From positions 32,001 to 96,000 of the IMG/VR virus record IMGVR_UViG_3300045988_096313: DNA of 64,000 nucleotides, one strand, 5' to 3'. Shown here one piece after another: positions 34,982 through 52,589 of the stretch. Position 1 is the stretch's first letter; every line of letters begins with the position of its first letter. The notes under the pieces are model-generated. The model did no database searches. It was not told where the DNA came from and saw nothing but the letters and a program-made list of their open reading frames with translations. This DNA is from a virus. The position numbers and the translations under genes were made by a program.

Positions 34982-35332
34982 ATGAAAGAGTTAAGTTTTG
35001 ATAAGCTATACGTAAATTTTAGCAATTTATATTGTGAGTATCGTAGTAGAAAGCAATTCTTGAAGTGGTTGAAATCCTCAAAGAATCTTTCTGAAGAGTT
35101 GTTTGAAGTAACGCCAAGTGAAGGTGGTTCGTTTGATGTTGTGTTGTCTTTTGAAGAGATAAAGGATGTATTCCCGATTATGGAGAATTCATTGCCTAAG
35201 TACGAAAACGATATAAAGCAAGTTCTTTTGGCTATAAAGGAAATGGGACAGCTTGAAGTTGCAAAGATATGGCATGAGGATGATTGGGGTGATGGCTTTG
35301 TAGAGGATTTTTGTAAAACACATGATATTTAA
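34982..35332 (+). CDS. hypothetical protein (116 aa)
   Basis: Intact ORF whose stop overlaps the MTase start. Confidence 0.5.
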   Translation: MKELSFDKLYVNFSNLYCEYRSRKQFLKWLKSSKNLSEELFEVTPSEGGSFDVVLSFEEIKDVFPIMENSLPKYENDIKQVLLAIKEMGQLEVAKIWHEDDWGDGFVEDFCKTHDI

Positions 35333-36381
35333 TGAGGATACGGACGTTTGAACTTTGTGCCGGATATGACTCTCAACTGATGGCTTTAGAGCGGTTGAAG
35401 AAGAAATATTCTGATTTCGATTACGAGTGCATCGGCTGGTCGGAGATAGAGCCAAGTGCAATAGCCTTGCATAATGCTTGTTTTCCTAGTCTATCCTGCA
35501 AGAATTTCGGTGATATGACAAAGATAGATTGGAGCAAGGTTGAAGACTTTGACTTGCTGACATATTCAACACCTTGCCAGTCCATTTCGCAAGCCGGAAA
35601 GCAGAAAGGAATAGAGGAGGGGAGTAACACCCGTTCCTCTATCCTTTGGCTTACAAGAAACGCCATTATTACCACGAGACCGAAATACCTCTTGATGGAG
35701 AATGTTGAGGCTTTGGTTCAAACAAAGTTCATCGGGTTCTTCAATAAGTGGCGTAAGGAGTTGGAATCCTATGGATATGTCAACTATGCTAAGGTGATAA
35801 ATGCAGCCGATTGTGGTGTTCCTCAGAACAGAAAGCGTGTCTTTATGCTCTCTATACGAAATGATGGAGAAAAGACCGATTATCACTTTCCGAGAAAGAT
35901 AAAGCTGGAGAAACACTTAGTTGATGTCTTGGAGGAAAATGTGGACGAGAAGTACTTTTTGAGCGATGCCCTGCTATGTAAAGAGAAGTTTGTGTCAAAT
36001 GAAAGGAAAGAGCCTATGAGTGCAGCTATAAGAACTCGTTCTGAGGGGAAGTGGATAAAAGGCGAAATGCATAGTCCAAAGGTCGAGCTTGGAAAGAATA
36101 TAGCCAATACCATTACATCTGCGAGCAAGGACTCCTTGGTTGTGCTTGGAGAGACAAGGTTGCGCATTAGGCGTTTGACTCCGAGAGAACTCTTCCGCTT
36201 AATGAACGTTGACGAAGAATACATAGACAAGATGCTTGAAAGTGGAGTGTCGAAGTCAAGTCTTCAAAAGGCAGCTGGAAATTCGATTGTCGTAGCTTGC
36301 ATGGAAAGGATATTAGAGGAACTTTGGTTTAATAGCAAAGAGTTCGACGTTTCCGATGACGGACAATTATATATATTTTAG
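35332..36381 (+). CDS. DNA (cytosine-5)-methyltransferase
   Basis: FELCAGYDS (motif I-like), TYSTPCQSISQAGK (PCQ, motif IV), LLMENV (motif VI), QNRKRVF (motif VIII), GNSIVV (motif X). Confidence 0.85.
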   Translation: MRIRTFELCAGYDSQLMALERLKKKYSDFDYECIGWSEIEPSAIALHNACFPSLSCKNFGDMTKIDWSKVEDFDLLTYSTPCQSISQAGKQKGIEEGSNTRSSILWLTRNAIITTRPKYLLMENVEALVQTKFIGFFNKWRKELESYGYVNYAKVINAADCGVPQNRKRVFMLSIRNDGEKTDYHFPRKIKLEKHLVDVLEENVDEKYFLSDALLCKEKFVSNERKEPMSAAIRTRSEGKWIKGEMHSPKVELGKNIANTITSASKDSLVVLGETRLRIRRLTPRELFRLMNVDEEYIDKMLESGVSKSSLQKAAGNSIVVACMERILEELWFNSKEFDVSDDGQLYIF

Positions 36382-36401
36382 CATATGTTTATAAGGGTAG
36401 C

Positions 36402-36509
36402 CATATTATCGTGGATTGCAAGCGGTTCGATTCTGACATCTTTTTCCGCAAGGATGCTTGTCAATGGATTCAGATGCAACCTAAAGAAATGCTATCAATG
36501 GTAGCGTAA
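36402..36509 (+). pseudogene. 3' fragment of an LVPLTK-family gene
   Basis: Encodes ..IIVDCKRFDSDIFFRKDACQWIQMQPKEMLSMVA*. The last 81 nt differ at only 3 positions from the 3' end of 62782..63081 (reverse complement). No N-terminal part is present. Confidence 0.75.
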
Positions 36510-36576
36510 AGAAACAAGGTATAATTTTTCGGTGAAAGTTCTTGCCAATTCCCTTGCATATATGAAGAAATTTTCG

Positions 36577-36584
36577 TATCTTTG
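36577..36584 (+). promoter_or_regulatory. -7 promoter box TATCTTTG upstream of tnpB
   Basis: Matches TAnnTTTG. The upstream TTGCATAT resembles the promoter modules at 39.06 kb and 44.24 kb. Confidence 0.55.
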
Positions 36585-36596
36585 CAAGTGGATTTC

Positions 36597-36621
36597 GGTG
36601 AGACACACCTTTCAAAAACTG
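36597..36621 (+). promoter_or_regulatory. conserved hairpin-box copy 4
   Basis: GGTGAGACACACC-TTTCAAAAACTG. Lies 12 nt after the -7 box and ends 16 nt before the tnpB ATG. Confidence 0.6.
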
Positions 36622-36637
36622 TTTAAAATTTAGGGAT

Positions 36638-37774
36638 ATGATTTCATACAAGTATAAGCTATATCGGACAAAGAAGACGAAGCATTTGGATAAGATGCTC
36701 CGAGAGGCTTGCTATGTTTGGAATCATGCGCTTGCCTTGCAGATGAGGTACTATAAGCTGTACCACAAGTATATTCCAAAATTTACGATGTTTAAGCATT
36801 TCTCTAAGCGATATAAGCCAATATTGCTTAACGGTCATACCATTAGAGAAATTTTAGAGCGTTTGGATATAGCTTACCAACGTTTCTTCAAACACGATGC
36901 GAAGCGTCCACCGAAATTCAAAAAGGCATCTGAGTTTTGCTCATTTGTTTTTACTGATTGTGGTTATTCTCTTAGTGGAAATGAGTTGGCGATAAACAAG
37001 ATTAAGAAGTCCTTCAAGTTCTTTCTGAGCCGTTCCTACGATGGCAAGGTCAAGAGGGTGTCAGTTAAGCGCAACAAGTTGGGCGAGTACTTCATTATCC
37101 TTTGCTTAGATAAAGAAGCCAGACCTTACGGAAAGTCACACGATGGTGCATCCGTTGGCATCGACTTTGGATTGAAGAAGTACCTGACTTTGAGCGATGG
37201 GCGTGAGATTGATAATCCTCAGTTCCTTAAAGCTGACTTGCAGGAGCTTAGGCGCAGGTCTCGCAACTTCTCGAAGTGCAAGAAGGGCAGCAACAACCGC
37301 AAACGAAAGAAGCTGGAGTTGGAGCGATTGTATCGAAACATCGTGAACAAGCGTTCCGATTTTCAGTGGAAGTTGGCGCATGAGTTGTGCAAGCGTTATG
37401 ACTTGATTTGCTTGGAGGATTTGAACTTGGAGGGAATGATAAAGCGTTGGGGACGCAAGATGTCTGACTTGGCTCATGGCGATTTCGTTGTGAAGTTGGA
37501 GCACGTAGCGAAGAAGTATGGCGTTCAGGTTCATAAGATAGACCGCTTCTTCCCTTCGAGCCGTCTCTGTACCTGTGGTTACAAGAATGATAAGCTGTCA
37601 TTGAGTGATAGGATTTGGACTTGTCCTAGTTGTGGTGCAGTTCATCCTAGAGACCTCTTCGCAGCTGAGAATATACTTCGGCAGGGCATTGCCGAATTGG
37701 GGAGTGGTAGTAAGTCACCCAAGCACTCGCAAGGGCGCAGCCACGTTAGCCACCCAACAATTCCTTGCAAATAA
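36638..37774 (+). CDS. tnpB: TnpB (OrfB) RNA-guided RuvC nuclease
   Basis: Typical N-terminus MISYKYKLYRTKKT. RuvC triad candidates VGIDFGLKK (D), ICLEDLNL (E), HPRDLFAAENI (D). Zinc ribbon CTCG...CPSCG. Confidence 0.85.
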   Translation: MISYKYKLYRTKKTKHLDKMLREACYVWNHALALQMRYYKLYHKYIPKFTMFKHFSKRYKPILLNGHTIREILERLDIAYQRFFKHDAKRPPKFKKASEFCSFVFTDCGYSLSGNELAINKIKKSFKFFLSRSYDGKVKRVSVKRNKLGEYFIILCLDKEARPYGKSHDGASVGIDFGLKKYLTLSDGREIDNPQFLKADLQELRRRSRNFSKCKKGSNNRKRKKLELERLYRNIVNKRSDFQWKLAHELCKRYDLICLEDLNLEGMIKRWGRKMSDLAHGDFVVKLEHVAKKYGVQVHKIDRFFPSSRLCTCGYKNDKLSLSDRIWTCPSCGAVHPRDLFAAENILRQGIAELGSGSKSPKHSQGRSHVSHPTIPCK

Positions 37775-37785
37775 GCAAGGAAGTA
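37560..37785 (+). ncRNA. predicted omega/reRNA scaffold region of TnpB (position inferred, not demonstrated)
   Basis: In characterised TnpB systems the guide RNA scaffold overlaps the tnpB 3' end. An 8-bp hairpin TTCCTTGC/GCAAGGAA (37761..37782) spans the stop codon. Confidence 0.3.
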
Positions 37786-38087
37786 TGCCAACAGCTATGT
37801 TTATTTTAAATATTGATGATATGATGTTTTTGAATAATAAAGAGAAAAAGGAGAAAGCAAATGCTATCTCATACAAGATAGAGGAGTACATCTGGGGACG
37901 TAAGGATTTCGTTACCGACTGCCCCTATGGAGAGAAAGGCAGATATACCAACGCCATTAATAAGGTTGGTGATTTGGGATGTAACACTTGCAAATGGCAG
38001 GTAAGGCATAGCCCAAGAGCGCAAGTTGTGACGTGCTCCCATCCAAAGGAGGAGAATTGCGAGGTTAAGAAACAGTTTAAGGATTAA
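37785..38087 (+). CDS. hypothetical Cys-containing protein (100 aa)
   Basis: Start moved to ATG 37785, 3 nt after the hairpin. The longer ORF-track version overlaps tnpB out of frame. Confidence 0.45.
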   Translation: MPTAMFILNIDDMMFLNNKEKKEKANAISYKIEEYIWGRKDFVTDCPYGEKGRYTNAINKVGDLGCNTCKWQVRHSPRAQVVTCSHPKEENCEVKKQFKD

Positions 38088-38928: not shown

Positions 38929-39084
38929 ACTTTGATTAATATGGTTACAAAAACTTTCAATTGTTAGAACGCATAAAATGCAAAAATCTACTAAATGAAT
39001 GGTTGTATTAATGTTTAAAGATTAAAATACTTTAAACGTGTACATAAACACATTAAATAATTTGCATATTTCGATATTAGTTTG

Positions 39085-39092
39085 TATCTTTG
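39085..39092 (+). promoter_or_regulatory. -7 promoter box TATCTTTG with TTTG 24 nt upstream
   Basis: Matches TAnnTTTG. A candidate -33 TTTG lies at 39061. Confidence 0.6.
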
Positions 39093-39129
39093 CACTGTAA
39101 TTAAGAGACAAAGATTACTAATTTGAAAA

Positions 39130-39152
39130 GGTGAGACACACCATAAAAACTG
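39130..39152 (+). promoter_or_regulatory. conserved hairpin-box copy 6
   Basis: GGTGAGACACACC-ATAAAAACTG, ending 6 nt before ATG 39159. Confidence 0.6.
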
Positions 39153-41614: not shown

Positions 41615-41871
41615 TGAAAATCGAACCAAGTGAGTTCTTGTCGATAGGTAATGAATTTCAGAAAATCTTCGGTGTTAGCTTTGGAAAGTTCATTGATATG
41701 CGGTTTCTTTTAGCGAGAAAAGAGTTGGTCTTTAACTTACTGAAGTTCACGGATTGGCTTGAAGAACGTTATCCAGATGAGTGTTCCATTGATGAAGTGA
41801 GTTACAATGCGGTTGTCGAGCGAAAGTTTGGCAAGCGAGGTGTTAAAATGATTAAGAAGTTGATAGGATGA
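41614..41871 (+). CDS. hypothetical protein (85 aa)
   Basis: Start overlaps the upstream stop, and the stop overlaps the Dam start. Confidence 0.5.
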   Translation: MKIEPSEFLSIGNEFQKIFGVSFGKFIDMRFLLARKELVFNLLKFTDWLEERYPDECSIDEVSYNAVVERKFGKRGVKMIKKLIG

Positions 41872-42593
41872 AGTACATGGGTAGTAAGGCTAGAATCGTG
41901 CATGAGATATTGCCGATTATGCTGGACAAAGAGCATAATACGTTTGTAGATGCTTTCTGTGGTGGCTGTAGCGTTATTGAGAACGTTCCGGACACGTATC
42001 GCAGGATTGCCAACGACAAGAATAAGTACCTTATCGAAATGTGGAAGTATCTACAGAACGATGGATTTGTCTTCAACCATATTAGTAAGACGTTGTATGA
42101 CTTTGCACGAGATTGTTATCACGGAAAGAATAATTTCTTTACCGAAGCTGGTGTTGGACTAATAGGGTTTATGGCTAGCTTTAATGGCCGTTTCTTTGAT
42201 GGTGGCTATAGCGGACATAATGTTGTCGGCAAGAACGGAAAGGCTAGAGATTACATAAGGGAGCAGATAGAAAATACAATGCGTGATGTGCCTCTTCTCA
42301 AAGGTGTTGAGTTCTATAGCGGCAGTTATGATGAACTTGTGATACCGGATAGGAGTATAGTGTATTGCGATCCACCTTACAAATCTACGAAAAAGTATGA
42401 TGTATCAAAGAATTTCGATTACGAAAACTTCTATATATGGTGCATGGAAATGGCTAGAAGAGGTCATAAGGTATTTATCAGCGAGTACCAGATGCCGCAA
42501 GAGTTCAGATGTGTTTGGGAAAAGGAAGTAACAAACTCTCTTAACCCGAATATCACAAAGAGACCAGTTGAAAGGTTATTTACGATAGATTAA
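41868..42593 (+). CDS. DNA N6-adenine methyltransferase (Dam / D12 class)
   Basis: N-terminal MKYMGSKARI, FVDAFCGGCSV (AdoMet motif) and VYCDPPY (catalytic DPPY). Confidence 0.85.
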   Translation: MKYMGSKARIVHEILPIMLDKEHNTFVDAFCGGCSVIENVPDTYRRIANDKNKYLIEMWKYLQNDGFVFNHISKTLYDFARDCYHGKNNFFTEAGVGLIGFMASFNGRFFDGGYSGHNVVGKNGKARDYIREQIENTMRDVPLLKGVEFYSGSYDELVIPDRSIVYCDPPYKSTKKYDVSKNFDYENFYIWCMEMARRGHKVFISEYQMPQEFRCVWEKEVTNSLNPNITKRPVERLFTID

Positions 42594-42600
42594 AATCGGT

Positions 42601-42759
42601 ATGAAAGAAACTTGTTGCTTAGAAGATACGCTTTACAACACAAAGCGTTACTTCACTTTGGAAAATGGTGTAGTATCAGGAACGGAACTTTCGCAGGAAG
42701 ACTTTAATGTGTTCCTCGACCTTGCAAGTCGTCTTGGTTATAATGTAGTGAAACTATGA
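42601..42759 (+). CDS. hypothetical small protein (52 aa)
   Basis: Hand-translated as MKETCCLEDTLYNTKRYFTLENG.... ATGA overlap with the next small ORF. Confidence 0.35.
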   Translation: MKETCCLEDTLYNTKRYFTLENGVVSGTELSQEDFNVFLDLASRLGYNVVKL

Positions 42760-42917
42760 CAAGGCGAGTAAACAAGGATTGTCCGTTCACAGCAGAAGAA
42801 CTGGATGGGTTCAGAGCTGCTTTGTATAGTGTGAATACATCGTTTCTCTGCTGCAATGCAGCTCCGGTAGATTGGGCAGCAGGATGGCAGCGGTATGATA
42901 TAAGGAAGACGAGGTAG
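42756..42917 (+). CDS. hypothetical small protein (53 aa)
   Basis: Hand-translated as MTRRVNKDCPFTAEELDGFRAALYSVNTSFLCCNAAPVDWAAGWQRYDIRKTR. Confidence 0.35.
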   Translation: MTRRVNKDCPFTAEELDGFRAALYSVNTSFLCCNAAPVDWAAGWQRYDIRKTR

Positions 42918-43364
42918 GATTCCATAATCTACAAATACCCACGTGTCAAAGCCGTGTGATGCCTTGCGTGGGGGCGGGATTGTAAACTTAGGAGTCGCAC
43001 GGCTTTATTTGGAAGTTTCATAACTACAATAGCCTATCGCTAATGGTTGTTCCCTTGGGCAGGGAGATAGTTAATACCGCATCGTAAGATGTGAACACTT
43101 GAAATTTGTCGGCAATCATTGGCAAATGCCTATTAGTCAGCGGCAGAAACCCTTGGGCAAGGTTGGAAATGGTGCAAAGTCTTCAAATTCGCATCTGTCG
43201 CTGACAAACGGATGAGTGGCATTGGCAACTGAAAGCAATGCGACCCTCGCAAACTTGGAGCGGATTTTCTGATTAAATATTCCGTGTACCAGGTCACTGG
43301 GGAGGTGTTGACATCAACAAGGGTTTAAATCCCTTGTCATCCACTAATTTTAAAAGGTTAAATT
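42918..43364 (+). ncRNA. ORF-free 447-nt GC-richer region with multiple helices and two degenerate roughly 100-nt repeats (candidate structured RNA or cis-acting DNA site)
   Basis: 9-bp helix 42948-56/42998-43006. 11-bp helix 43136-46/43195-43205. GUAA-loop hairpin 43078-93. Two hairpins share the loop TTGGGCA on different stems (TCCC/GGGA at 43051-65; AACC/GGTT at 43148-64). CATTGGCAA occurs twice. 6-bp helix 43219-24/43236-41. Confidence 0.45.
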
Positions 43365-43592
43365 ATGAATGAATATTGTAAGAATTTGATTTCAAATGGT
43401 GTTCCTAGCTGGATAGTAGAGGAGGCTTATAAATTTACAATTGAGCCTTTGAAATCAACAGAAGGCTTGGTAGAAATTGATAAGGAAAATAGTGAGCTAT
43501 ATAGAAATGTCATTATCGCAGCCTACATTGAGGGTGCTAGTGCTACATTGGAAAAAGTGCAAAGATATTATGGCAGTGAGGAACATAGTTAG
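43365..43592 (+). CDS. hypothetical protein (75 aa)
   Basis: First ORF after the non-coding region. Confidence 0.45.
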   Translation: MNEYCKNLISNGVPSWIVEEAYKFTIEPLKSTEGLVEIDKENSELYRNVIIAAYIEGASATLEKVQRYYGSEEHS

Positions 43593-43809
43593 ACAATGGA
43601 ACGAGGCAACAGGAGGATATTCGTACCGCTTCAAAGGTGGAGATATTTTCCTTCGCTTGGTAAAGGCTGATGGTATTTATGAATTGCGTAACCCTATAGG
43701 TTATGGTGTTCAAGTAGTCAAATGCAAAGACTTGGATGAAGCAGATGCAAAAGCCAAGGAAGTGCTAGAAGCTTTTTTTGAAGACAAAGTTAACATAAAA
43801 GTTATTTGA
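43570..43809 (+). CDS. hypothetical protein (79 aa)
   Basis: Start placed at ATG 43570, overlapping the end of the upstream gene. Confidence 0.45.
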   Translation: MAVRNIVRQWNEATGGYSYRFKGGDIFLRLVKADGIYELRNPIGYGVQVVKCKDLDEADAKAKEVLEAFFEDKVNIKVI

Positions 43810-43811
43810 TT

Positions 43812-44081
43812 ATGGACTTAGAAATGTTGATTGATAAGATAGACTTTAGTCAAGGTGCAAGGCAGATAGCCAAGCAAGCCTTGGAGTTGGGAATAAAATA
43901 TCAAAAGGAAGATGCTTGGCATTCGGTTGAAGAATTGCCGGAGCACAACAGACGCATTGTCGGTTTGACCAAGGTTCGCAAGCGTTTCAAGCATCTGAAT
44001 TTCTTAGGAGAGGAATGGTGGAAGAAGTTTACGAAGTCAAATGCTATCTATAAATGGGCTTATGTGGACGATTTAGTTTGA
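43812..44081 (+). CDS. DUF551-like small protein
   Basis: WHSVEELPEHNRRIV core and a C-terminal YKWAYVDDLV motif shared with paralogs. Confidence 0.5.
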   Translation: MDLEMLIDKIDFSQGARQIAKQALELGIKYQKEDAWHSVEELPEHNRRIVGLTKVRKRFKHLNFLGEEWWKKFTKSNAIYKWAYVDDLV

Positions 44082-44128
44082 TAGTAATCGTAGAAATCCA
44101 TAATGCTATTTTGTTTTAAATGTTTGCC

Positions 44129-44167
44129 CCATCACTATATATAATAATGTAGTGGTGGTTTTTTTTT
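44129..44167 (+). terminator. intrinsic terminator
   Basis: CCATCACTA/TAGTGGTGG stem (one wobble) followed by TTTTTTTTT. Confidence 0.75.
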
Positions 44168-44261
44168 GTTAACGTCAGCAAATTATTCGTTTATATTATT
44201 ATAGAGTGTTAAAGGTTATAAGAAATACATTAAATAACTTGCATATTTCGGGATTTATTCG

Positions 44262-44269
44262 TATCTTTG
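44262..44269 (+). promoter_or_regulatory. -7 promoter box TATCTTTG
   Basis: Matches TAnnTTTG. Confidence 0.6.
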
Positions 44270-44305
44270 CATCGTAGTTAAGAAACAAAGGTTACTAATT
44301 TAAAA

Positions 44306-44328
44306 GGTGAGACACACCTTAAAAACTG
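44306..44328 (+). promoter_or_regulatory. conserved hairpin-box copy 7
   Basis: GGTGAGACACACC-TTAAAAACTG, ending 10 nt before GTG 44339. Confidence 0.6.
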
Positions 44329-44338
44329 TAAGAAGAAA

Positions 44339-44599
44339 GTGGAAAAGAATAATGTTTATGTAGAGGTGTTGGCAAAGATTGCCAGCCTCATGGGTAGAAC
44401 AAAGGAGTCTATCCAGATGTCGTCTTCAAATACTCATACGAGTATTACGATGTTTGCTGAAAATAATAGCAAGATTATTGGAAATTGGTATTTTGATGCT
44501 TCCGATAGCAAGGAGTTGGTGGATGCTACTTTCAATGGTCTGAAGGCTTTGGTTGAGTCTCTTGAGCACAATAAGAGCAATGACGGACAAGCAGCGTAA
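44339..44599 (+). CDS. hypothetical protein (86 aa, GTG start)
   Basis: First ORF after promoter-box module B. Confidence 0.45.
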   Translation: MEKNNVYVEVLAKIASLMGRTKESIQMSSSNTHTSITMFAENNSKIIGNWYFDASDSKELVDATFNGLKALVESLEHNKSNDGQAA

Positions 44600-44828
44600 G
44601 TACATAGAAAGACTTATCAAGAAAGTGTTTCGTAATGCAGATTCGCAGAGCGAAATACTTTCTAGATTGGATAGGGTTAAGATTTCAAGCCATCAAGCTT
44701 CGGTAATGATACATGCATTGAAGTTAGAGTGCAATATCGGTCGCTCCGTTCCGGCATATATGTTAATGGCAAACAATCTAAATTCAAAAATGGATGAGTT
44801 CTTTAGTATATTAGGGTACGATGAATGA
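44580..44828 (+). CDS. hypothetical protein (82 aa)
   Basis: Start at ATG 44580 (MTDKQRKYIERL), similar to the N-terminus of the 11..265 product. Confidence 0.45.
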   Translation: MTDKQRKYIERLIKKVFRNADSQSEILSRLDRVKISSHQASVMIHALKLECNIGRSVPAYMLMANNLNSKMDEFFSILGYDE

Positions 44829-44857
44829 CGTATTCTTCAAGAAGAAAAGAAGTTGAT

Positions 44858-45133
44858 ATGAAAAAGGTAATTATGATAATAGCCGTTGCCGCCATTTTGG
44901 TAGGTTGCAAAGGTAAGGGTACAAGAGTCCAAATCTCGGATTCTGTTGACAAATTCAATGTCGAGAAATTGTTTGTTGTTGATAGTATAACAGTGTACAG
45001 GTTCTATGACCAAGGAAATGCTATCTATTTCACTAACCGGAAAGGTAGGGTAGATGCAACCCATTCTGAGTACAATCCGGTTACTCACACATACAATGAC
45101 GAGGTTAACGAAACTTTATGTGAAGGAGACTGA
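44858..45133 (+). CDS. lipoprotein (91 aa)
   Basis: Signal peptide MKKVIMIIAVAAILVGC with an LVGC lipobox. Confidence 0.55.
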   Translation: MKKVIMIIAVAAILVGCKGKGTRVQISDSVDKFNVEKLFVVDSITVYRFYDQGNAIYFTNRKGRVDATHSEYNPVTHTYNDEVNETLCEGD

Positions 45134-45136
45134 AAA

Positions 45137-45367
45137 ATGGAAAAGAGATTAACTAAGGAAGAGTTCCTGAAGGATTTATGGCATCCATACAATGAAGAGC
45201 CTAGAAATGACTCTAAAATTGTATACGAAGATTGCGATAGAGACATTCATAACAAACAATACATTAAAGAAGACTACGAAGAGGGTTGGAGGGATTTTGT
45301 TTGTTTTTATAGCGTTTGGAAATGGGCTTATAAAGATGATTTACTTCCAAAGGAAGGAGGTGAATAA
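45137..45367 (+). CDS. DUF551-like small protein
   Basis: LWHPYNEEPRNDSKIV core and a C-terminal WKWAYKDDLLPKEGGE. Confidence 0.5.
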   Translation: MEKRLTKEEFLKDLWHPYNEEPRNDSKIVYEDCDRDIHNKQYIKEDYEEGWRDFVCFYSVWKWAYKDDLLPKEGGE

Positions 45368-45555
45368 TGACAAAATGGTACTCTGCAAAAGAAGCTCCAA
45401 ACTACGAAGAATGGATTCTTACAGAATGGTATGATGGAGACGATGGATGTCTTAAGTACGAAGCTGATTATCTTTACTCTTTTGTTTATTGGAAAGATTA
45501 TGTAAAGAGAAACAACATCACAAAGTGGTGCTATATTAAAGACATAAAAGATTAG
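45367..45555 (+). CDS. DUF551-like small protein
   Basis: KWYSAKEAPNYEEWIL core and a C-terminal TKWCYIKDIKD. Confidence 0.5.
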   Translation: MTKWYSAKEAPNYEEWILTEWYDGDDGCLKYEADYLYSFVYWKDYVKRNNITKWCYIKDIKD

Positions 45556-45654
45556 GCGTATGAAAGAACTTAAGAAGATGTTTGCTGAGCGTGTTTTCGA
45601 TAATAGAAATAAAGGTTTGTAGTGTTAGTCCAAATTTAAAAAGGAGGTTTGATT

Positions 45655-45873
45655 ATGAAATTATCTGAAATAGAATTAGAATTTTTGTATGAAAAATCAG
45701 CAGAGTTGTTTAGAGATAAAGTAAAACAACGAGGGGAAGATTACGAGCATTATAATAGATGCGCTTGCCCTGATGCTGTTCGCAGAACTCATCTACGAAC
45801 TCTCGCAAGAGAATCCATAGAAGATGTCAAGATTTTAATTGATGAACTACGTAATAATGGTTATGAAGCTTAA
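45655..45873 (+). CDS. hypothetical protein (72 aa)
   Basis: ATG 45655 preferred over the ORF-track TTG at 45649. Confidence 0.45.
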   Translation: MKLSEIELEFLYEKSAELFRDKVKQRGEDYEHYNRCACPDAVRRTHLRTLARESIEDVKILIDELRNNGYEA

Positions 45874-45877
45874 TAAA

Positions 45878-46297
45878 ATGGTTTTAGACAATAAGAAAAT
45901 AGAAGAAGCTGCACAAGGAGCAGCAGACTTGTATGAGCAAGACTTGCCTATAATGTCTTATAATGAAGACACAGAGGTTGATGGCCAGCATCATTTCTGC
46001 CAAGAGTTTGGCGCAGAGTTGTTTAAGGATGGTGTTAAGTGGGCTATCAATGAATTCCAGAAGAGCTTGTGTCACCCTGCTAGCGAAGTTCCTCAAATTG
46101 GCAGAGGAAGAGTTCTTGCATACTCTATAGACTGCTGTTATAGAAATCTTTACAACCTATACGATATGATGTCCAAGACCGATTGTAACACATATCAAGA
46201 AATGTGGGAATTAGAAGTTAAGGCATACGATTTGGATGGTTGGATATACGCAGATGAATTGTTTGGTTTAATTATAGAAGGAGGCAATCATGATTAA
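45878..46297 (+). CDS. DUF551-like protein, paralog of 54480..54803
   Basis: LDNKKIEEAAQGAADLYEQ...DGVKWAINEFQKSLCHPASEVP aligns with DDKKIEAAAFEEY...EGAKWAIKAFLEGLWHQTNKEP. Confidence 0.5.
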   Translation: MVLDNKKIEEAAQGAADLYEQDLPIMSYNEDTEVDGQHHFCQEFGAELFKDGVKWAINEFQKSLCHPASEVPQIGRGRVLAYSIDCCYRNLYNLYDMMSKTDCNTYQEMWELEVKAYDLDGWIYADELFGLIIEGGNHD

Positions 46298-46514
46298 GGA
46301 AGTAACAATGTACTCTGTCGTTTGTGACAGATGTGGAAAGACTTATGGTGTGGACGATGGCATAGACTGCTGGGTAGACATCTGTACCGCTAGAGAGCAA
46401 GCAATGGAAAGCGAATGGGCGGAGATAGGTGATAAACACTACTGTCCAGACTGCTACGAGTTTGAAGAGAAACTTGATGAGTATATTCCCAAAAAGAAAG
46501 GAGGTGAACAATGA
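46290..46514 (+). CDS. zinc-ribbon small protein, paralog of 50730..50945
   Basis: MYSVVCDRCG...KHYCPDCYEFE aligns with MYQIVCDRCG...KHYCPDCYEVE. Confidence 0.5.
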   Translation: MIKEVTMYSVVCDRCGKTYGVDDGIDCWVDICTAREQAMESEWAEIGDKHYCPDCYEFEEKLDEYIPKKKGGEQ

Positions 46515-46672
46515 AAAAGAATAAGCACTCATTAAAGATAAGTCGTAGTTTCTTTGGTGATACTACCCTTGATGGATATCCAATAGCAACATATTCAAAT
46601 GACGAATTGAAGATTCTAAAGAACCTGCTAACAAAGGTTCTGTGTGAAGTAAATGAATATATAAAAGACTAG
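46511..46672 (+). CDS. hypothetical small protein (53 aa)
   Basis: Hand-translated. ATGA overlap upstream, and it ends in the junction TAGGCGTATG. Confidence 0.35.
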   Translation: MKKNKHSLKISRSFFGDTTLDGYPIATYSNDELKILKNLLTKVLCEVNEYIKD

Positions 46673-46676
46673 GCGT

Positions 46677-46865
46677 ATGAAAGAGCTTAAAGTTGGAGAA
46701 AAGACCAAATGTGTCGTCACTATTAAAGCTGTTAGATGTGGTACATGCGAGGAATGTTTATTTTATGATGAATATTATCACTGTGCTAATGAAAAAAAAA
46801 TCGAATGTTTGGGTAAGTATCGCTCAGATGGAGAGAATGTAATCTTTAAATTGGTAAAGGAGTAA
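46677..46865 (+). CDS. small Cys-rich protein (62 aa)
   Basis: VRCGTCEECLFYDEYYHCANEKKIEC. Confidence 0.45.
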   Translation: MKELKVGEKTKCVVTIKAVRCGTCEECLFYDEYYHCANEKKIECLGKYRSDGENVIFKLVKE

Positions 46866-46869
46866 GCGT

Positions 46870-46992
46870 ATGAGTTACGAATCAAGAAGTAGATGTAAGG
46901 AAAGACAAATAACACCTTGTGGAATTTGTCCTTTAATGTTTAAGTGTCCTTATGATGAAGATGAGGATAAGTATAATCATCGTAAAAAGTAA
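46870..46992 (+). CDS. hypothetical small Cys-rich protein (40 aa)
   Basis: Hand-translated as MSYESRSRCKERQITPCGICPLMFKCPYDEDEDKYNHRKK. Flanked by TAAGCGTATG-type junctions. Confidence 0.3.
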   Translation: MSYESRSRCKERQITPCGICPLMFKCPYDEDEDKYNHRKK

Positions 46993-46997
46993 AGCGT

Positions 46998-47381
46998 ATG
47001 GCGCAGAAATATATTAAAGATGACATTGTAATGTATAAAAACAGAATACATACAATCATAGATACACTTGGACTAAATAATTATGAATTATCTTATGTAA
47101 GACATTCTGTAAATCAAGCTGAATTATCAGGCATTCCTCTTACTCTAGAGATTCTAGAGAAGAACGGATGGGTAAAAGATACGCATCGCCATTGTTTGGA
47201 TGAAATGCCGGCAGAGGCTTATGGAAAGAAGGACTTCCCGTTATCGTATTTTAATGTGACTTTTGGAAAGACAAGAATACAGGCTTCTCATGATTGCCTG
47301 TTTGTTAGAAATCTAAAATATGTGTCAGATTTACAACACCTTCTCTTCGGTCTAGGGCTTAACTCAGAAATGGAGGTGTAG
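46998..47381 (+). CDS. hypothetical protein (127 aa)
   Basis: Intact ORF in the array. Confidence 0.5.
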   Translation: MAQKYIKDDIVMYKNRIHTIIDTLGLNNYELSYVRHSVNQAELSGIPLTLEILEKNGWVKDTHRHCLDEMPAEAYGKKDFPLSYFNVTFGKTRIQASHDCLFVRNLKYVSDLQHLLFGLGLNSEMEV

Positions 47382-47383
47382 GT

Positions 47384-47551
47384 ATGGCTATATTATTATT
47401 AACATTAACAATGATTTTGGATATTACGGTACAATTTGGAATGGATAGAACTGAAAGTGTATGGTATGTTCCTATAAGTATCTTTGTTTTTATTTTAAGT
47501 GTAGCCGCTTTAGTGGTAGCATTTTTGGGTTTGATATATTTGATTGTTTAA
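47384..47551 (+). CDS. small two-TM membrane protein (55 aa)
   Basis: Hand-translated as MAILLLTLTMILDITVQFGMDRTESVWYVPISIFVFILSVAALVVAFLGLIYLIV. Confidence 0.4.
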   Translation: MAILLLTLTMILDITVQFGMDRTESVWYVPISIFVFILSVAALVVAFLGLIYLIV

Positions 47552-47577
47552 CGCCTTCGGGCATAACTTTTAAAGAT

Positions 47578-47883
47578 ATGACAAAAGAAGAATTAAAAGC
47601 AAAGGTTGCAAAGCAACAAAGTATCATTAATGATGCTAACAATCAGATTTGTTCTGATGTGAAGGAGTACATAGAAAGTCTTCCATACAAGGTTGGTGAC
47701 AAAGTTAGCTGTTCTAGATGTGATGTTTGTTGGATTGCAAGCATTGTTCCAGAGCGAGGTTATAAAGGTTATACTGGCGAGATTGATGTAAGAATCAACC
47801 CTGCTAAGAAAGATGGCACTCGCTCCAGTAGAGAGTTTGTACTATGGAGTATGGAAATTGATAGTATCAAGAAGATTGATTAA
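47578..47883 (+). CDS. hypothetical protein (101 aa)
   Basis: Start placed at ATG 47578 (MTKEELKAK). The longer ORF-track version overlaps the membrane ORF. Confidence 0.45.
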   Translation: MTKEELKAKVAKQQSIINDANNQICSDVKEYIESLPYKVGDKVSCSRCDVCWIASIVPERGYKGYTGEIDVRINPAKKDGTRSSREFVLWSMEIDSIKKID

Positions 47884-47914
47884 TCATCCTGCAAAGGATA
47901 TAAAAAGTAGTAAT

Positions 47915-48127
47915 ATGGATATTGATAAATTAGAAAGAGCAAATATCTTAGCAAAAAGTTTGATTCCTAAAGTAGATAACCTCTTAAATATGGGTTCAGT
48001 TATAAATAGTAAACTTGCTGATGCCATTTTGGGACTATCACAGCGTGATAAGGAATTTGAAACTAAATTCAAGAAGCTTCTGAATGAAACAAAACAGAGA
48101 TTTCAGAAAGAGTTTGATGAACTTTAG
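47915..48127 (+). CDS. hypothetical protein (70 aa)
   Basis: Start placed at ATG 47915 (MDIDKLERAN). Confidence 0.4.
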   Translation: MDIDKLERANILAKSLIPKVDNLLNMGSVINSKLADAILGLSQRDKEFETKFKKLLNETKQRFQKEFDEL

Positions 48128-48165
48128 TAACTAACCATTCCTTTTGGGATATAAATATAAGTAAT

Positions 48166-48315
48166 ATGGAAGAAATTTCTTTTAAAGTAATTCTGAGAGG
48201 TGAAGAATTAGACAAGGCGGAAGAATATCTTTATAGTATCAAAAATGCTATTAAAGAAGATATTGTAGAACAGAATTGTGAATTTGAAGATTTTGATGTA
48301 TTGATAACAGAGTAA
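48166..48315 (+). CDS. hypothetical small protein (49 aa)
   Basis: Hand-translated as MEEISFKVILRGEELDKAEEY.... Flanked by the direct 12-mer AGTAACTAACCA at 48126 and 48311. Confidence 0.3.
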   Translation: MEEISFKVILRGEELDKAEEYLYSIKNAIKEDIVEQNCEFEDFDVLITE

Positions 48316-48321
48316 CTAACC

Positions 48322-48549
48322 ACCCTCTCCTTGGTGAAGTTAAGATAATAATGAAAAAGTCGTGCTCGAATTAGATTGGTTGGCATCAGGTGTAGCCGTA
48401 AAATATCAATTACCGCTTGACAATTCACCTCAGAGCACTCTTATGTGGAAAAGGCATCAAGCATTTAGTACACATTGAAGAACGTTAATGAGTGAAAGGC
48501 TCATAAAGACTCCAATCCGTTATTATTTTAACAACATCAGGGAGAGGGT
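48322..48549 (+). ncRNA. candidate structured RNA (about 228 nt) closed by a 15-bp long-range helix
   Basis: 48322-48336 pairs with 48535-48549 (9 Watson-Crick pairs, then 6 more including two G-T wobbles valid only on the plus strand). Nested helices: GTGCTC/GAGCAC (48362-67/48433-38), AGGTG/CACCT (48388-92/48426-30), ATGAG/CTCAT (48488-92/48500-04). No plus-strand ORF above the size cutoff. Confidence 0.45.
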
Positions 48550-48563
48550 AAAAAGAAGAGAAT

Positions 48564-48695
48564 ATGGATGCAGGCAAAATAACATTAGGTAGCTATATTG
48601 CCTATCTCAAAAGTATGTATCAGCGATATGGTAATATAAGTATTACGCAACTAAAGCATATAGAAAGAAACAGGAAAAAGGAGAATAAACAATGA
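48564..48695 (+). CDS. hypothetical small protein (43 aa)
   Basis: Hand-translated. ATGA overlap with the next gene. Confidence 0.3.
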   Translation: MDAGKITLGSYIAYLKSMYQRYGNISITQLKHIERNRKKENKQ

Positions 48696-49096
48696 GCATA
48701 TATGTAACAATAAACTTGGATAGCTTGATATGCAAGCTGTCTAATAAAGAATTATATGATTTCATGATTGAAACATTCCGTGATAGAGTACCTGATGAAT
48801 CTCATATAAGCCTTATAACAGAAATGTTTAAGGTTATGTATGATACAGACCAAGAAGATGCACTTGCCAAAATGGTTGCTAACATACAAGGAAGAAGACC
48901 AAAGCAAGTGTCTCCCGTATGGGTTTCTGTCAAGGATAGACTTCCACCAGTAGATAAAGAAGCTGTAGTACTCACTACAGATGGTGAAATATGTTTCGGA
49001 CATATAGTAGATAAAAAGATAGCCAAAGACTACAACGGATGGAATATTCCTGATGTAGAATACTGGCTACCATTCGTTGACCCAAAAGATGAATAA
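48692..49096 (+). CDS. DUF551 domain protein
   Basis: WVSVKDRLPPVDKEAVVLTTDGEICFGH...EYWLPF is the characteristic DUF551 pattern. Confidence 0.6.
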   Translation: MSIYVTINLDSLICKLSNKELYDFMIETFRDRVPDESHISLITEMFKVMYDTDQEDALAKMVANIQGRRPKQVSPVWVSVKDRLPPVDKEAVVLTTDGEICFGHIVDKKIAKDYNGWNIPDVEYWLPFVDPKDE

Positions 49097-49098
49097 TT

Positions 49099-49434
49099 AT
49101 GGATTTTATGAACTCAGAGCGTAAAGCACGCAAACCTCACAAATGTTATATGTGTGGTTGTGAAATAGAAGTAGGACATAAATATATTCGTCAGTTTGTA
49201 CCAGAATACAGGTCTGCAACCTGTATGCACAAGGAATGTGTAGACCTTCTAAGCTATGAAGGTTTCTGTGATGAAGAATCTAGCGAGGGTACAAGTGATG
49301 ATTTCTTTTGCAACGCAATCTTTGATTACGTCAATAGGTATCATACTTCTTCTGATGGCAAAGCGTTAGATGAAGGTTGGGATGCGCCTATATATGAACA
49401 AGTAAAACTAATTTTAAAAGAATTGGAGGATTGA
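49099..49434 (+). CDS. Cys-rich hypothetical protein (111 aa)
   Basis: HKCYMCGCEIEVGHKY...CMHKEC. Confidence 0.5.
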   Translation: MDFMNSERKARKPHKCYMCGCEIEVGHKYIRQFVPEYRSATCMHKECVDLLSYEGFCDEESSEGTSDDFFCNAIFDYVNRYHTSSDGKALDEGWDAPIYEQVKLILKELED

Positions 49435-49436
49435 TT

Positions 49437-49592
49437 ATGACAAAATTTAAAGTAGTTAGATATTGGGATACATATCCCGATGGAGTTGTTGCAACTTGTG
49501 ACACAGAGGAGGAGGCTGAAAAGATACGTAAGAAATATCTTAGTAATTGCAAGCCTATGTATGACTATTTGGTTAGAAAGGAGAACGAGTAA
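49437..49592 (+). CDS. hypothetical small protein (51 aa)
   Basis: Hand-translated as MTKFKVVRYWDTYPDGVVATCDTEEEAEKIRKKY.... Confidence 0.35.
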   Translation: MTKFKVVRYWDTYPDGVVATCDTEEEAEKIRKKYLSNCKPMYDYLVRKENE

Positions 49593-49759
49593 TGACTAGA
49601 GAAGAGTTAAGAAATAATTATGGAAATGACATCTGTGAGTTATGCCACCGTGAGTTCTATACTAGCAGAGCATACCCAGAATCACTTTGCGAAGGTCTGT
49701 TTTGCGAAGAGGCAGAAGATGACTACGCAGCAGAAAATAACATAGAGTTGGAGGATTGA
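49592..49759 (+). CDS. hypothetical small protein (55 aa)
   Basis: Hand-translated as MTREELRNNYGNDICELCHREFY.... TAATG overlap upstream. Confidence 0.35.
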   Translation: MTREELRNNYGNDICELCHREFYTSRAYPESLCEGLFCEEAEDDYAAENNIELED

Positions 49760-49760
49760 T

Positions 49761-50015
49761 ATGACAGAAGAAATTTATAACAAAGCTACAAACTTAAGAA
49801 GTTTAATTGAAAAAGACAAGAAGACTCTTAAGTATTGGAAGGAAGCAGTAGATGCAACAGAAGAAACTATCACATTGTCTAACGGATTAGGATATAATGG
49901 ATATGTAAAAACATCTATTGCTATGTTTATATCTTTCAAAGAATTGAAAGATATGGCTATTGAGAGACTTACAAAGAGTTTAGAACGACATCAAAAAATG
50001 TATGAAGAATTATAA
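49761..50015 (+). CDS. hypothetical protein (84 aa)
   Basis: Intact ORF in the array. Confidence 0.45.
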   Translation: MTEEIYNKATNLRSLIEKDKKTLKYWKEAVDATEETITLSNGLGYNGYVKTSIAMFISFKELKDMAIERLTKSLERHQKMYEEL

Positions 50016-50029
50016 TGGAGAACTAAATT

Positions 50030-50458
50030 ATGGACAGAAATCAAGCTAAAGAATTTTATCCTATTCTGCAAGCTTATGCTGAAGGAAAGGTAATAGAGTG
50101 TAGAACCAAACCAAGTGCCATAGAAGATGAGAACGTTCCGAATGAATGGGCAGAAATAAAGGTTATAGAGTTTAATGGCAATAAAGAGTATCGCATTAAG
50201 CCAAATCTAGAACCAGAGTCAGAGTACCGTCCTTTCAAGGATGCTATAGAGTGCTGGACTGAAATGCGTAAGCATAAGCCGTTTTCAATTTTGAAGGATA
50301 AAAAAGATGGACATCGGATTCAAATCTCTTCTATCTCTGATGGAATTAATTCAATTAGTTCAAGTCCAGATTCAAATTTTTGCTGTGATTTTAAATACAG
50401 AATGGATTCATGTACCTTTGATGATGGGGCTCCATTCGGCGTAAAAGTGGAGGAATAG
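50030..50458 (+). CDS. hypothetical protein (142 aa)
   Basis: Intact ORF in the array. Confidence 0.5.
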   Translation: MDRNQAKEFYPILQAYAEGKVIECRTKPSAIEDENVPNEWAEIKVIEFNGNKEYRIKPNLEPESEYRPFKDAIECWTEMRKHKPFSILKDKKDGHRIQISSISDGINSISSSPDSNFCCDFKYRMDSCTFDDGAPFGVKVEE

Positions 50459-50460
50459 TT

Positions 50461-50703
50461 ATGGAAATTAATGAAAAAATAAATGAAATAATTCAACAAG
50501 CAAAAGAAGAAGGAGATTATAAGGAAGATTTTGACGCATTTGAACAAGCGATATATGACCAAGGTTTTCATAATGCAATTTCTTTCATGCTGTGGAATCC
50601 AAGCGAGCGAAGTTGTTCTAATTGTCAGTATCAGCACAGTAGACAGCTATGTGGGGAAGAGTACTGCGGGCAAAAATACTGGAGACCAAAATTGGAGGAA
50701 TAG
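50461..50703 (+). CDS. hypothetical protein (80 aa)
   Basis: Intact ORF in the array. Confidence 0.45.
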   Translation: MEINEKINEIIQQAKEEGDYKEDFDAFEQAIYDQGFHNAISFMLWNPSERSCSNCQYQHSRQLCGEEYCGQKYWRPKLEE

Positions 50704-50729
50704 ATATGCCATGTAAAGAAGAATAGCTT

Positions 50730-50945
50730 ATGTATAGACCGATTACAATGTATCAGATTGTTTGCGATAGATGCGGAGAAGTGTTTGGTGGTACAGATAC
50801 TTGCTCTGCACTATTCAGTAACAAAGAAGTTGATATTGGTGACTACTCTGATTGGGAAATGATAGATAGCAAACACTATTGTCCCGATTGTTATGAAGTA
50901 GAGGTCATTGATGGAGTGTATAACGTTAAAGCAAAGGAGAAATAG
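50730..50945 (+). CDS. zinc-ribbon small protein, paralog of 46290..46514
   Basis: Shared CDRCG...HYCPDCYE motifs. Confidence 0.5.
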   Translation: MYRPITMYQIVCDRCGEVFGGTDTCSALFSNKEVDIGDYSDWEMIDSKHYCPDCYEVEVIDGVYNVKAKEK

Positions 50946-50947
50946 AT

Positions 50948-51262
50948 ATGGAAGTATTAAAAGACATAAGTCAGTTAACAAAAGGTTGCGGAGTGACATT
51001 CATTAAAAATGATAATTTCCACTTCTACGAGTACCTTATGGTACACCCTAATCGTGAAACCTATTATCTTTTTATAGATAACTGGACGCAAGACGTTGTA
51101 CGAATACACGTCAGCGAACTCTTAAATGGAGATTACTATATAGGTGAATATGATACTGTTTTCGTTAATAAAAAGATGATAGAATTTTATAAACGTATGA
51201 TTCACTGTCACGAGAATAGAATTAAAGAGAGTTTAAAGAAAAATAGTTATGGCAACCTATAG
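50948..51262 (+). CDS. hypothetical protein (104 aa)
   Basis: Intact ORF in the array. Confidence 0.5.
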   Translation: MEVLKDISQLTKGCGVTFIKNDNFHFYEYLMVHPNRETYYLFIDNWTQDVVRIHVSELLNGDYYIGEYDTVFVNKKMIEFYKRMIHCHENRIKESLKKNSYGNL

Positions 51263-51503: not shown

Positions 51504-51506
51504 CTT

Positions 51507-51884: not shown

Positions 51885-51887
51885 CTT

Positions 51888-52268: not shown

Positions 52269-52271
52269 TAT

Positions 52272-52532: not shown

Positions 52533-52589
52533 TCGTAAAATTCTCGGTGTAGATTTTGAATATAAAAACTTCTAAAATGAAAAAGAGAT

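Follow-up and report, generated by a model that had tools for sequence, protein, structure and literature searches.

What is encoded by the longest stretch of a tightly packed phage gene array in which no sizable open reading frame (ORF) is found? The stretch in question, positions 42918-43364 (447 nucleotides, nt), lies within a 64,000-nt window of viral DNA taken from the record IMGVR_UViG_3300045988_096313 (positions 32,001 to 96,000 of that record); "the window" refers to this whole stretch, and all coordinates are window positions. The block is the longest plus-strand gap without an ORF of at least 45 amino acids (aa) between 38 and 56 kb, the next longest being 376 and 257 nt, and its G+C content is 44.5% vs 36.6% for the gene array at 39-55 kb. 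An earlier note, made from the letters of the window, had picked it out as an ORF-free, GC-richer block with several helices, two degenerate repeats of about 100 nt and no promoter, and had proposed that it is a large phage non-coding RNA (ncRNA), an RNA scaffold for a protein, or a cis-acting DNA site. The size and composition of the block hold up, the listed helices are all present, and the absence of a plus-strand ORF of at least 45 aa led us to judge the block non-coding. We find that it is most likely a multi-domain structured RNA element, on the plus strand, of a gut Bacteroidales phage. Beyond what the note had described, the 3′ 134 nt form a full cloverleaf, the 5′ end is a terminator-shaped hairpin, and about half of the relatives carry tnpB at this locus.

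Pairing on the transcribed strand is conserved in related phages

A 33-mer from the block matched 98 contigs in IMG/VR (11-222 kb, mostly 60-125 kb), and extra copies came from a search with the flanks, from metagenomes and from one GenBank record. For comparison we used some 150 contigs of related gut phages together with more distant relatives, which were reached through a neighboring 274-aa protein at 75-50% protein identity; all homologues come from one phage lineage. Two alleles are present among the 98 contigs, 53 like that of the window and 45 with tnpB. The close-clade alignment holds 46 distinct sequences of the tnpB-free allele, which differ by about 5%, and two models were used, a covariance model built from the first repeat unit only (R1, 43034-43130) and a model of the 3′ domain (R2). 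A structured block occupies the same syntenic place in all relatives, whether or not tnpB is present, and the left flank is variable: three different left flanks occur, and the methyltransferase cassette at 41868-42932 is absent in some genomes. Within the window, R1 and R2 found no further copies beyond the second repeat unit, and R2 found no second cloverleaf. A degenerate pattern, CCTTGGGCA-N45-72-CATTGGCA, retrieved from IMG/VR the same family only, plus chance matches, and a pattern derived from the distant clade had 0 matches in IMG/VR.

Variation among the 46 sequences follows the pairing of the plus strand. At consensus pairs, common variants keep rather than break the pair by 17:1, a count that is partly circular since the consensus structure was drawn from the same alignment; the same pairs read on the minus strand give 9:9, and slid pairs give about 7-8 to 9-14. 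Nearly all pair-breaking variants on the consensus structure are rare. In helices defined beforehand from the window, wobble pairs switch to Watson-Crick pairs at 42957/42997, 43046/43116, 43047/43115 and 43143/43198, with further such sites at 43113, 43121, 43123, 43221 and 43241, and the T-arm-like hairpin has one C-G to G-C swap at its base. Two variants, both singletons, are the sole pair-breaking ones in these helices. Nucleotide diversity is 2.8% in module 1 and 1.9% at 43211-43287, compared with 5-8% in the other parts of the block and, in the flanking genes, 9-15% at third codon positions. With the decisive covariation contributed by the distant relatives, the pattern of variation gives good support to the view that the element is structured as RNA on the transcribed strand.

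Searches with Rfam 15, at gathering scores and at E up to 10, returned nothing relevant in the window, in the tnpB allele L003 or in the distant relative L328; the best match in the block, DUF3577, scored 17.3 bits vs a gathering score of 42.6 (E = 2.4), and ROOL, GOLLD, HEARO, YrlA, riboswitches and ribozymes are among the families without a match. The earlier note had suggested an Rfam scan, which gave no family match; our comparison of related phages uncovered covariation. From the alignments, in which all stems covary and the shared motif and the long arm keep their sequence (both described below), we conclude that the block represents a conserved RNA family without a match in Rfam 15. Elsewhere in the window, a DUF805b RNA on the minus strand (60738-60770, 40.3 bits) is the sole Rfam match above its gathering score.

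The 3′ domain resembles a tRNA with a substituted anticodon arm

The 3′ domain (domain 3; Table 1) is, judged from its alignment, most likely a complete cloverleaf that mimics a transfer RNA (tRNA) in which the anticodon arm has been substituted. Fourteen of its 37 pairs have changed on both sides, compared with 5.1 +/- 1.5 in shuffles, of which 0/500 reach 14, and 1-3 in slid controls; 95.9% of the cells in the cloverleaf alignment are paired, vs 38-50% with slid partners. The 5′ strand of the acceptor stem reads GGAUGAG, GGAUGGG or GCGGAGG and the 3′ strand matches each, with 5/6 modelled pairs covarying; seven-pair acceptors are formed in L328 (GGAUGGG/UCCAUCC), L334 (GGAUGGG/CCCAUCC) and L333 (GCGGAGG/CCUCCGC). 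The D-like stem is GCAUUG/CAAUGC, GCAUGG/CCAUGC or GGCACG/CGUGUC. The T stem reads AAGGG, GAUGG, GAUAG or CAAGG, each with its complement, and covaries at 4/6 pairs. What had been noticed as a T-arm-like hairpin can be read as a true T-arm analogue: covariation is seen in it, and L328, L334 and L329 have the canonical loop UUCGAAU there; the window's clade and L333 have UUUAAAU or UUUGAAU, with U at position 56. A discriminator A followed by C is found in all relatives compared, and CCA is never encoded.

In place of the anticodon stem-loop stands a long arm of three stacked helices with a 16-nt terminal loop, and this arm contains the best-conserved sequence of the domain, GGAGCGGA...UGAUUAAA...UCCGUGUACC. 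A short ORF that could start in the loop (NUG-AUU-AAA) does not keep its reading frame in relatives. The 3′ 138 nt are also more stable than expected, with a folding-energy z of -3.3 and 0/200 shuffles as stable. We also considered a pairing between the shared motif and the T-arm (43147-55 with 43318-26), which was rejected for lack of covariation in L328. No transfer-messenger RNA was called in the window by ARAGORN, even at a relaxed threshold, and the cloverleaf encloses just ~120 nt.

Two upstream modules present a shared motif inside covarying stems

Module 1 is the most widely conserved part of the element and is present in both alleles. A 13-bp closing stem (P1) surrounds the CCUUGGGCAAGG motif and a hairpin with a GNRA loop. 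At the syntenic position, R1 scores 59.8 bits in L334, 48.4 in L329-L331, 38.1 in L328 and 26.3 in L333, with a weak match of 12 bits in L323-L325, and P1 covaries in the distant relatives at 3 pairs (GC/AU and UA/CG/GC). In the distant homologues of all matched lineages the stems compensate and the motif is kept; it is retained in every module 1 homologue found, including those of relatives whose neighboring protein is 54-57% identical. The GNRA hairpin is altered in L328 and L334 with compensation in its stem (GCACC/GGUGU) and a loop of 10-11 nt.

The claim of two repeats of about 100 nt stands as a shared architecture, with the units corrected to 43034-43130 and 43131-43212. R1, which was built from unit 1 only, matches unit 2 over its full length (20.3 bits, E ~0.03), the second best match in the window in a search space of 128 kb; the next scores 12.6 bits. 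The closing stems of the two units are wholly different in sequence yet complementary, that of module 2 being 11 bp with one G-U pair (G43143-U43198), and the CCCUUGGGCA motif is placed equally in both. By plain sequence, unit 1 vs unit 2, and either unit vs window 36331-36530, are not significantly similar (z from <1 to 2.2). Module 2 is found only in the window's clade and lacks the GNRA hairpin, and in L328, L334 and L333 module 1 directly adjoins domain 3, so module 2 is read as a clade-specific duplication, i.e. as a diverged tandem duplicate of module 1.

Where two hairpins had been described as presenting the same loop on short compensating stems, a better description is a conserved motif of 12-13 nt inside long closing stems that covary. 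The motif occurs as CCCTTGGGCA[G/A]GG at 43052 and 43150, with a spacing of 98 nt, and its 12-mer CCTTGGGCARGG has only 2 matches on both strands of the 64 kb (43053 and 43151) vs 0.21 expected by chance. Retention of the motif within changing stems makes it a probable recognition site, on comparative grounds. A second 12-mer, CATTGGCAA[A/C]TG, does recur 103 nt apart (43117 and 43220) as had been reported, but as a repeat it is probably due to chance, since its second copy falls outside unit 2, in the D-like stem, and relatives do not keep the repeat.

Domain 0, at the 5′ end, has the shape of an intrinsic terminator. Its perfect 9-bp helix (42948-56 / 42998-43006) can be extended to arms of 17 nt at 82% complementarity, and the conserved apical part reads GCGUGGGGGCGGGAU..GUAAACUUAGG. 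An A-tract on the 5′ side and UUUAUUU on the 3′ side flank the stem, and the order A-tract, stem, U-tract is found in every relative; across distant relatives, 17 predicted pairs include 0 broken and 2 compensatory ones. The U-tract is longer in relatives, reading UUUAUUUUUU in L329. Compared with an intrinsic terminator, domain 0 has a loop of ~25-50 nt, an interrupted U-tract in the window, and no call by a terminator scan. In two distant relatives (L328 7383-7590 and L334 3890-4070), ~200 nt of additional structure precede domain 0 and include a diverged second domain-0-like hairpin (..CACACGUG..GCCUUGCGUGUGGGGAGGAUAGUAAAUCUGG..).

Table 1. Positions of the domains, helices and other features of the element in the window.
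Feature	Position	Strand	Description
Domain 0	42938-43012	+	long hairpin, helix 42948-42964 / 42990-43006
Module 1	43039-43123	+	13-bp closing stem P1 (43039-43051 / 43111-43123) around motif and GNRA hairpin; RNAalifold consensus
Conserved motif	43052-43064	+	CCCUUGGGCAGGG; consensus CCUUGGGCARGG
GNRA hairpin	43078-43093	+	CGCAUC-GUAA-GAUGUG; invariant in the close clade
Replaced segment	43125-43287	+	in 45/98 contigs: 16 nt plus a 1.26-kb tnpB cassette, homologue of window 36531-37793
Module 2	43131-43212	+	closing stem 43136-43146 / 43195-43205; motif CCCUUGGGCAAGG at 43150-43162
Domain 3	43210-43343	+	134-nt cloverleaf
Acceptor stem	43210-43216 / 43336-43342	+	6 bp plus a G-G seventh pair in the window
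U at the position-8 analogue	43217	+	
D-like hairpin	43219-43224 / 43236-43241	+	6-bp helix; loop of 11-14 nt
Long conserved arm	43244-43305	+	~55 nt in place of the anticodon stem-loop
Short variable hairpin	43307-43317	+	
T-arm	43318-43336	+	loop UUUAAAU in the window
Discriminator	A43343	+	

A tnpB cassette has overwritten part of the element in about half of the relatives

The cassette of the second allele encodes a TnpB protein of 378 aa (OrfB_IS605, 8.5e-26; Cas12f1-like TNB, 2e-17). Its right end (...GGAGUAUGYCAA) abuts 43288, the junction being precise at 43287|43288, and the diverged clade L329 (the 72% clade) shares this junction, its guide region having diverged accordingly. The insertion takes away module 2 together with the cloverleaf's 5′ half. 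In the tnpB cassette the omega-RNA region corresponds to the 3′ end, and the guide region begins inside the cloverleaf, from 43288 onward; local alignment of 43125-43290 with the omega-RNA region gave a shuffle z of ~3 and no convincing shared structure. None of the relatives compared has an empty site, that is, neither allele. With replacement in 45/98 relatives and in the 72% clade, the replaced part is dispensable, and the function of the RNA would have to be accessory.

The insertion sequence (IS) is widespread: 353 relatives of this tnpB were found in IMG/VR, where they occupy at least eight contexts and a single genome often has several. By comparison with empty sites, its right-end junction is precise at ten sites; the left junctions are never clean. 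No consistent transposon-adjacent motif was seen, as the bases 5′ of the ten insertion points end in TGGT, ATGC, ATAC, TGGC or GTGT. Module 1 precedes tnpB in 45 loci and is as low in diversity as tnpB there, and we therefore considered that it might be the left end of the IS. This was rejected, as R1 finds no module beside other tnpB copies (35 loci, at least eight insertion contexts) and the IS left end at other sites is a different one (AAGGUGAGGCACACC...). A second candidate, that the tnpB-free allele is a PATE (a transposable element associated with a palindrome) lacking tnpB, was rejected because the ends of the block are unlike IS ends and no empty site was found. The missing modules, the different left end and the fixed synteny argue for insertion into the block; by this comparison the RNA is not part of a mobile element, and the IS destroyed part of the RNA.

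In genomes with tnpB (L003, L012, L014 and others), the diversity of module 1 plus cassette is 0.3-1.3% vs 3-7% in the flanks, which suggests a young, spreading haplotype. Such a low-diversity block would fit TnpB-guided homing between phages, in which module 1 may serve as the left homology arm.

Several other insertions were seen in the window and its relatives. An IS605-family tnpB element at window 36331-37809 (ORF 36638-37774) lies in the last codons of a C5 cytosine methyltransferase gene (35332-36381). It carries a diverged replacement C-terminus for that gene (36331-36381) and ~130 nt from the 3′ end of an unrelated gene (36393-36510), and the original last six codons of the methyltransferase gene survive at 37792-37809. 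In L081 and L140, the tnpB copy at the block site is joined directly to window 59825, and ~16.5 kb of small genes corresponding to 43288-59824 are missing, apparently through a deletion between two IS insertion sites. Methyltransferase genes of some relatives are also interrupted: a Dam-like gene of 580 aa with a LAGLIDADG_3 domain (L283 1481-3223) and a Dcm-like gene of 673 aa with Hint domains (L324 1-1310) carry what we read from their domains as homing-type inserts.

The block lies inside a transcription unit of a tailed phage

The window encodes a large terminase and an SPP1-type portal and belongs to a tailed phage. A Dam-type methyltransferase gene and two tiny ORFs lie upstream of the block, an array of small unannotated genes lies downstream, and the downstream gene has a start codon of its own. 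Nine small neighboring proteins received no annotation from PHROGs or Pfam. A 20-mer from the element occurs in only 2 species-representative genomes, both metagenome bins (Segatella copri and Rikenella), which gives a weak hint of the host. The second-longest ORF-free stretch on the plus strand of the gene array is at 48316-48691 (376 nt).

The Bacteroidota -33/-7 promoter pattern is enriched in the window (15 matches vs 2.5 expected). A scan for promoters of this type (TTTG-N17-21-TAnnTTTG) and of the sigma-70 type found none inside the block, in line with the earlier note. The nearest plus-strand promoters are at 39061-39092 (Bacteroidota-type) and ~44239-44270, and a clean terminator is at 44129-44158. 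As these signals lie outside it, the block sits inside one transcription unit, without a promoter of its own, and is probably co-transcribed with its neighbors, on the transcribed strand. A promoter cassette of the Bacteroidota -33/-7 type, TTGCATATTTCG...GTATCTTTGCA, is repeated at 39046-39152, 44220-44328, 31512-31570 (minus strand), 60794-60825 (minus strand) and 36540-36600; it heads several transcription units, and a close variant of it serves as the promoter of the tnpB element. At 2323-3321 the window encodes a 332-aa protein that combines a helix-turn-helix, sigma-70 region 4 and an RNA polymerase alpha C-terminal domain; this combination is unusual and points to a transcription factor of the phage.

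A proposed accessory RNA released through its tRNA-like domain

We favor, with somewhat better than even confidence, a model in which the block gives rise to an accessory RNA that is cut from the operon transcript by way of its tRNA-like domain. In tRNA maturation, RNase P and RNase Z recognize a 12-bp stack of acceptor and T-arm with a discriminator. The acceptor/T-arm stack of domain 3 would make the RNA a substrate for the tRNA-processing enzymes of the host, and from the 12-bp stack with its discriminator and no CCA, cleavage is expected at ~43209|43210 by RNase P and after A43343 by RNase Z, the latter position because CCA is not encoded. Processing would free a stable tRNA-like RNA of ~134 nt, and would at the same time set the 3′ end of an upstream RNA containing domain 0 and the modules and the 5′ end of the downstream mRNA, much in the way that MALAT1 acquires its 3′ end through the processing of mascRNA. 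Modules 1 and 2 would present the motif to a partner, either protein or RNA. In L323-L325, where the neighboring protein is 54% identical, the closing stem of module 1 is followed directly by U9 and there is no cloverleaf, in keeping with the notion that the upstream RNA can be ended either by a terminator or by the cloverleaf.

Several points weigh against this model. Every functional step in it is inferred, and the loss of half of the element from many genomes means that the element is not needed for growth. With all homologues coming from one phage lineage, independent changes are limited in number, and the circularity of the variant count has to be allowed for: single-sequence minimum free energy structures give a much weaker result, with 12-16 variants that keep vs 5-15 that break pairs, weakly in favor of the plus strand. 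The folding energy of the whole 447 nt is unexceptional and nominally better on the other strand (z = -1.6 on plus, -2.5 on minus), and, as only the 3′ domain is energetically unusual, the case for structure rests on covariation, not energy. The window's own clade departs from tRNA at the seventh acceptor pair (G-G) and at C56 (U). Finally, neither ARAGORN at its default settings nor the Rfam model RF00005 calls a tRNA in the window or in L328; since tRNA detectors miss the cloverleaf, recognition by RNase P and RNase Z is assumed from geometry.

The alternative that we take most seriously, while considering it unlikely, is that no separate RNA is made and that the block is a cis-acting cluster of attenuators or terminators. 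Domain 0 and the closing stems would be partial terminators, possibly controlled by a protein, that tune the flow of transcription from the methyltransferase genes to the small genes. The block does sit between two gene groups of one operon. The terminator-like features of domain 0 in every relative and the U9 of L323-L325 would serve this purpose, as would the alternative left-hand cassette of L058 and L087, which extends up to ~43016 and ends in a terminator-like hairpin just before 43016. However, in the window no U-tract follows module 1, module 2 or the cloverleaf, the terminator scan calls none of these elements, and nothing in a terminator calls for a covarying four-way junction that bears acceptor and T arms, or for a conserved 55-nt arm. 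Attenuation by domain 0 alone can coexist with the release of an RNA product. An improbable reading is that domain 3 is an aberrant or decaying phage tRNA gene with an insertion of ~45 nt in its anticodon loop, the upstream modules being unrelated leaders. Related phages carry tRNA genes, the acceptor, T-arm, U8, variable-arm-like hairpin and discriminator A are all present, and ARAGORN under relaxed settings (threshold 70%, introns allowed) reports a 'tRNA-Gly(acc)' with a 41-nt intron at 43210-43344. On the opposite strand the same run yields spurious calls as well, and its proposed anticodon stem, GCGAC/GUCAC, is not kept in L328, where, as in the window, the default search and the Rfam tRNA model are negative. 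Furthermore, the supposed insertion is the best-conserved part, at 1.9% diversity, the opposite of what a relic would show, the D-like stem is 6 bp with a loop of 11-14 nt, and we know of no bacterial mechanism for removing a short intron that is not of group I.

Function at the level of DNA appears very improbable to us. In this reading, single-stranded hairpins would act as IS200/IS605 ends or relics (PATE-like), as a landing pad, or as a replication or packaging signal, and the position of the tnpB cassette directly 3′ of module 1 in 45/98 contigs, the low diversity shared by module 1 and tnpB, the tolerance of DNA hairpins for G-T wobbles, and the CCCUUG and GGGAG that the right-end hairpin of the IS (UCCCUUGC..GCGAGGGAG) shares with the motif region of module 1 could all be accommodated. 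Yet the module is single-copy at a fixed syntenic position with no empty site found, R1 finds it at none of the 35 other tnpB loci, the IS has its own left end elsewhere, and to our knowledge a tRNA-type cloverleaf with a T-loop has no role at IS ends. A replication or packaging signal is further opposed by the lack of a GC-skew switch at the block and by the distance of 34 kb to the terminase gene. Of the roles in the earlier note, a large phage ncRNA or RNA scaffold therefore fits the covariation, and the iteron-type origin or pac site does not, as common variants keep G-U wobbles on the plus strand only and the module is a single copy unlinked to other IS copies. Scarcely credible is the reading that the block splices from the transcript as an IStron-like group I intron, one that has no ORF in the window and bears tnpB in relatives. 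IStrons do combine group I introns with tnpB and were first found with existing group I covariance models (10.1101/2023.11.20.567912), and the block has a GNRA tetraloop, while many relatives have structured RNA on the 5′ side of tnpB. Intron_gpI, however, has no match in the window or in the tnpB allele at E up to 10, although IStron introns were findable with such models; no frame is interrupted or split, there are three left flanks, and the downstream gene has its own start codon.

Returning to the release of an accessory RNA through the cloverleaf, the location of the block may say something about its use. Counter-defence functions of phages commonly reside in regions of small early genes and methyltransferases, and the similar location of the block offers a lead, and only a lead, toward a counter-defence role. 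Tentatively, and with much more doubt than confidence, we can extend this to a new class of phage ncRNA that joins a tRNA mimic to motif modules, in an early array of accessory genes beside anti-restriction methyltransferases. Such an RNA might act in trans, decoying or inhibiting a host system for sensing or cleaving tRNA or for recruiting tRNA-processing enzymes, or it might represent a bacterial 3′-end formation of the MALAT1/mascRNA type; the locus would also be an arena of RNA-guided homing, in which a haplotype spreads at the expense of the RNA. Structured RNAs of gut phages that rest on firm comparative evidence are few, and this one comes with a well-supported architecture and a precise, testable prediction of processing. 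If the cloverleaf is processed, phage operons would be shown to use tRNA mimicry to excise an RNA and to punctuate a polycistronic message. Moreover, the replacement by tnpB in about half of the sampled relatives, with its precise right-end junction, provides a natural presence/absence system for studying TnpB homing among co-infecting phages and the worth of the RNA to the phage.

Comparison with known RNA systems

About 10,000 candidate structured RNAs from IMG/VR have been catalogued, in a study that also mentions viral tRNA-like structures (PMC10690425). Compared with Rfam 15, the anatomy described here is new: a cloverleaf with a substituted anticodon arm, two modules, a 5′ hairpin and an overwrite by TnpB. 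With IStrons, the block shares a structured RNA just 5′ of tnpB in relatives and an omega-RNA guide region at the 3′ junction; it differs in having no group I features and in not being part of the mobile element.

ROOL and GOLLD, both in Rfam, are ornate RNAs of large size that occur in phages and prophages, frequently beside tRNA genes. Like them, the block is a large multi-domain phage RNA linked to tRNA-type structure, although it is smaller (~400 nt) and has no similarity to the Rfam models. YrlA and other bacterial Y RNA-like RNAs, some of them phage-encoded, join a tRNA-like module to another helical module. YrlA ends in a Ro-binding stem and its acceptor-like stem is capped, whereas the acceptor stem of the block is an open closing helix, and no rsr or rtcB gene was seen near the block among the annotated part of the window. 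With canonical tRNA (RF00005), domain 3 shares the 7-bp acceptor (in relatives), the 5-bp T stem with a 7-nt loop (UUCGAAU in L328, L334 and L329), the U at position 8 and the discriminator; it differs in the U that the window's clade has at the C56 position, in its atypical D-arm and in lacking an anticodon stem-loop with a 5-bp stem and 7-nt loop.

The comparison with MALAT1 and mascRNA sets the block apart by its setting in a Bacteroidales DNA phage, its ~55-nt arm, its 6-bp D-like stem and its one or two upstream modules. As in that system, an acceptor and T-arm mimic is embedded within a longer transcript, and by analogy cleavage by RNase P and RNase Z would be expected here.

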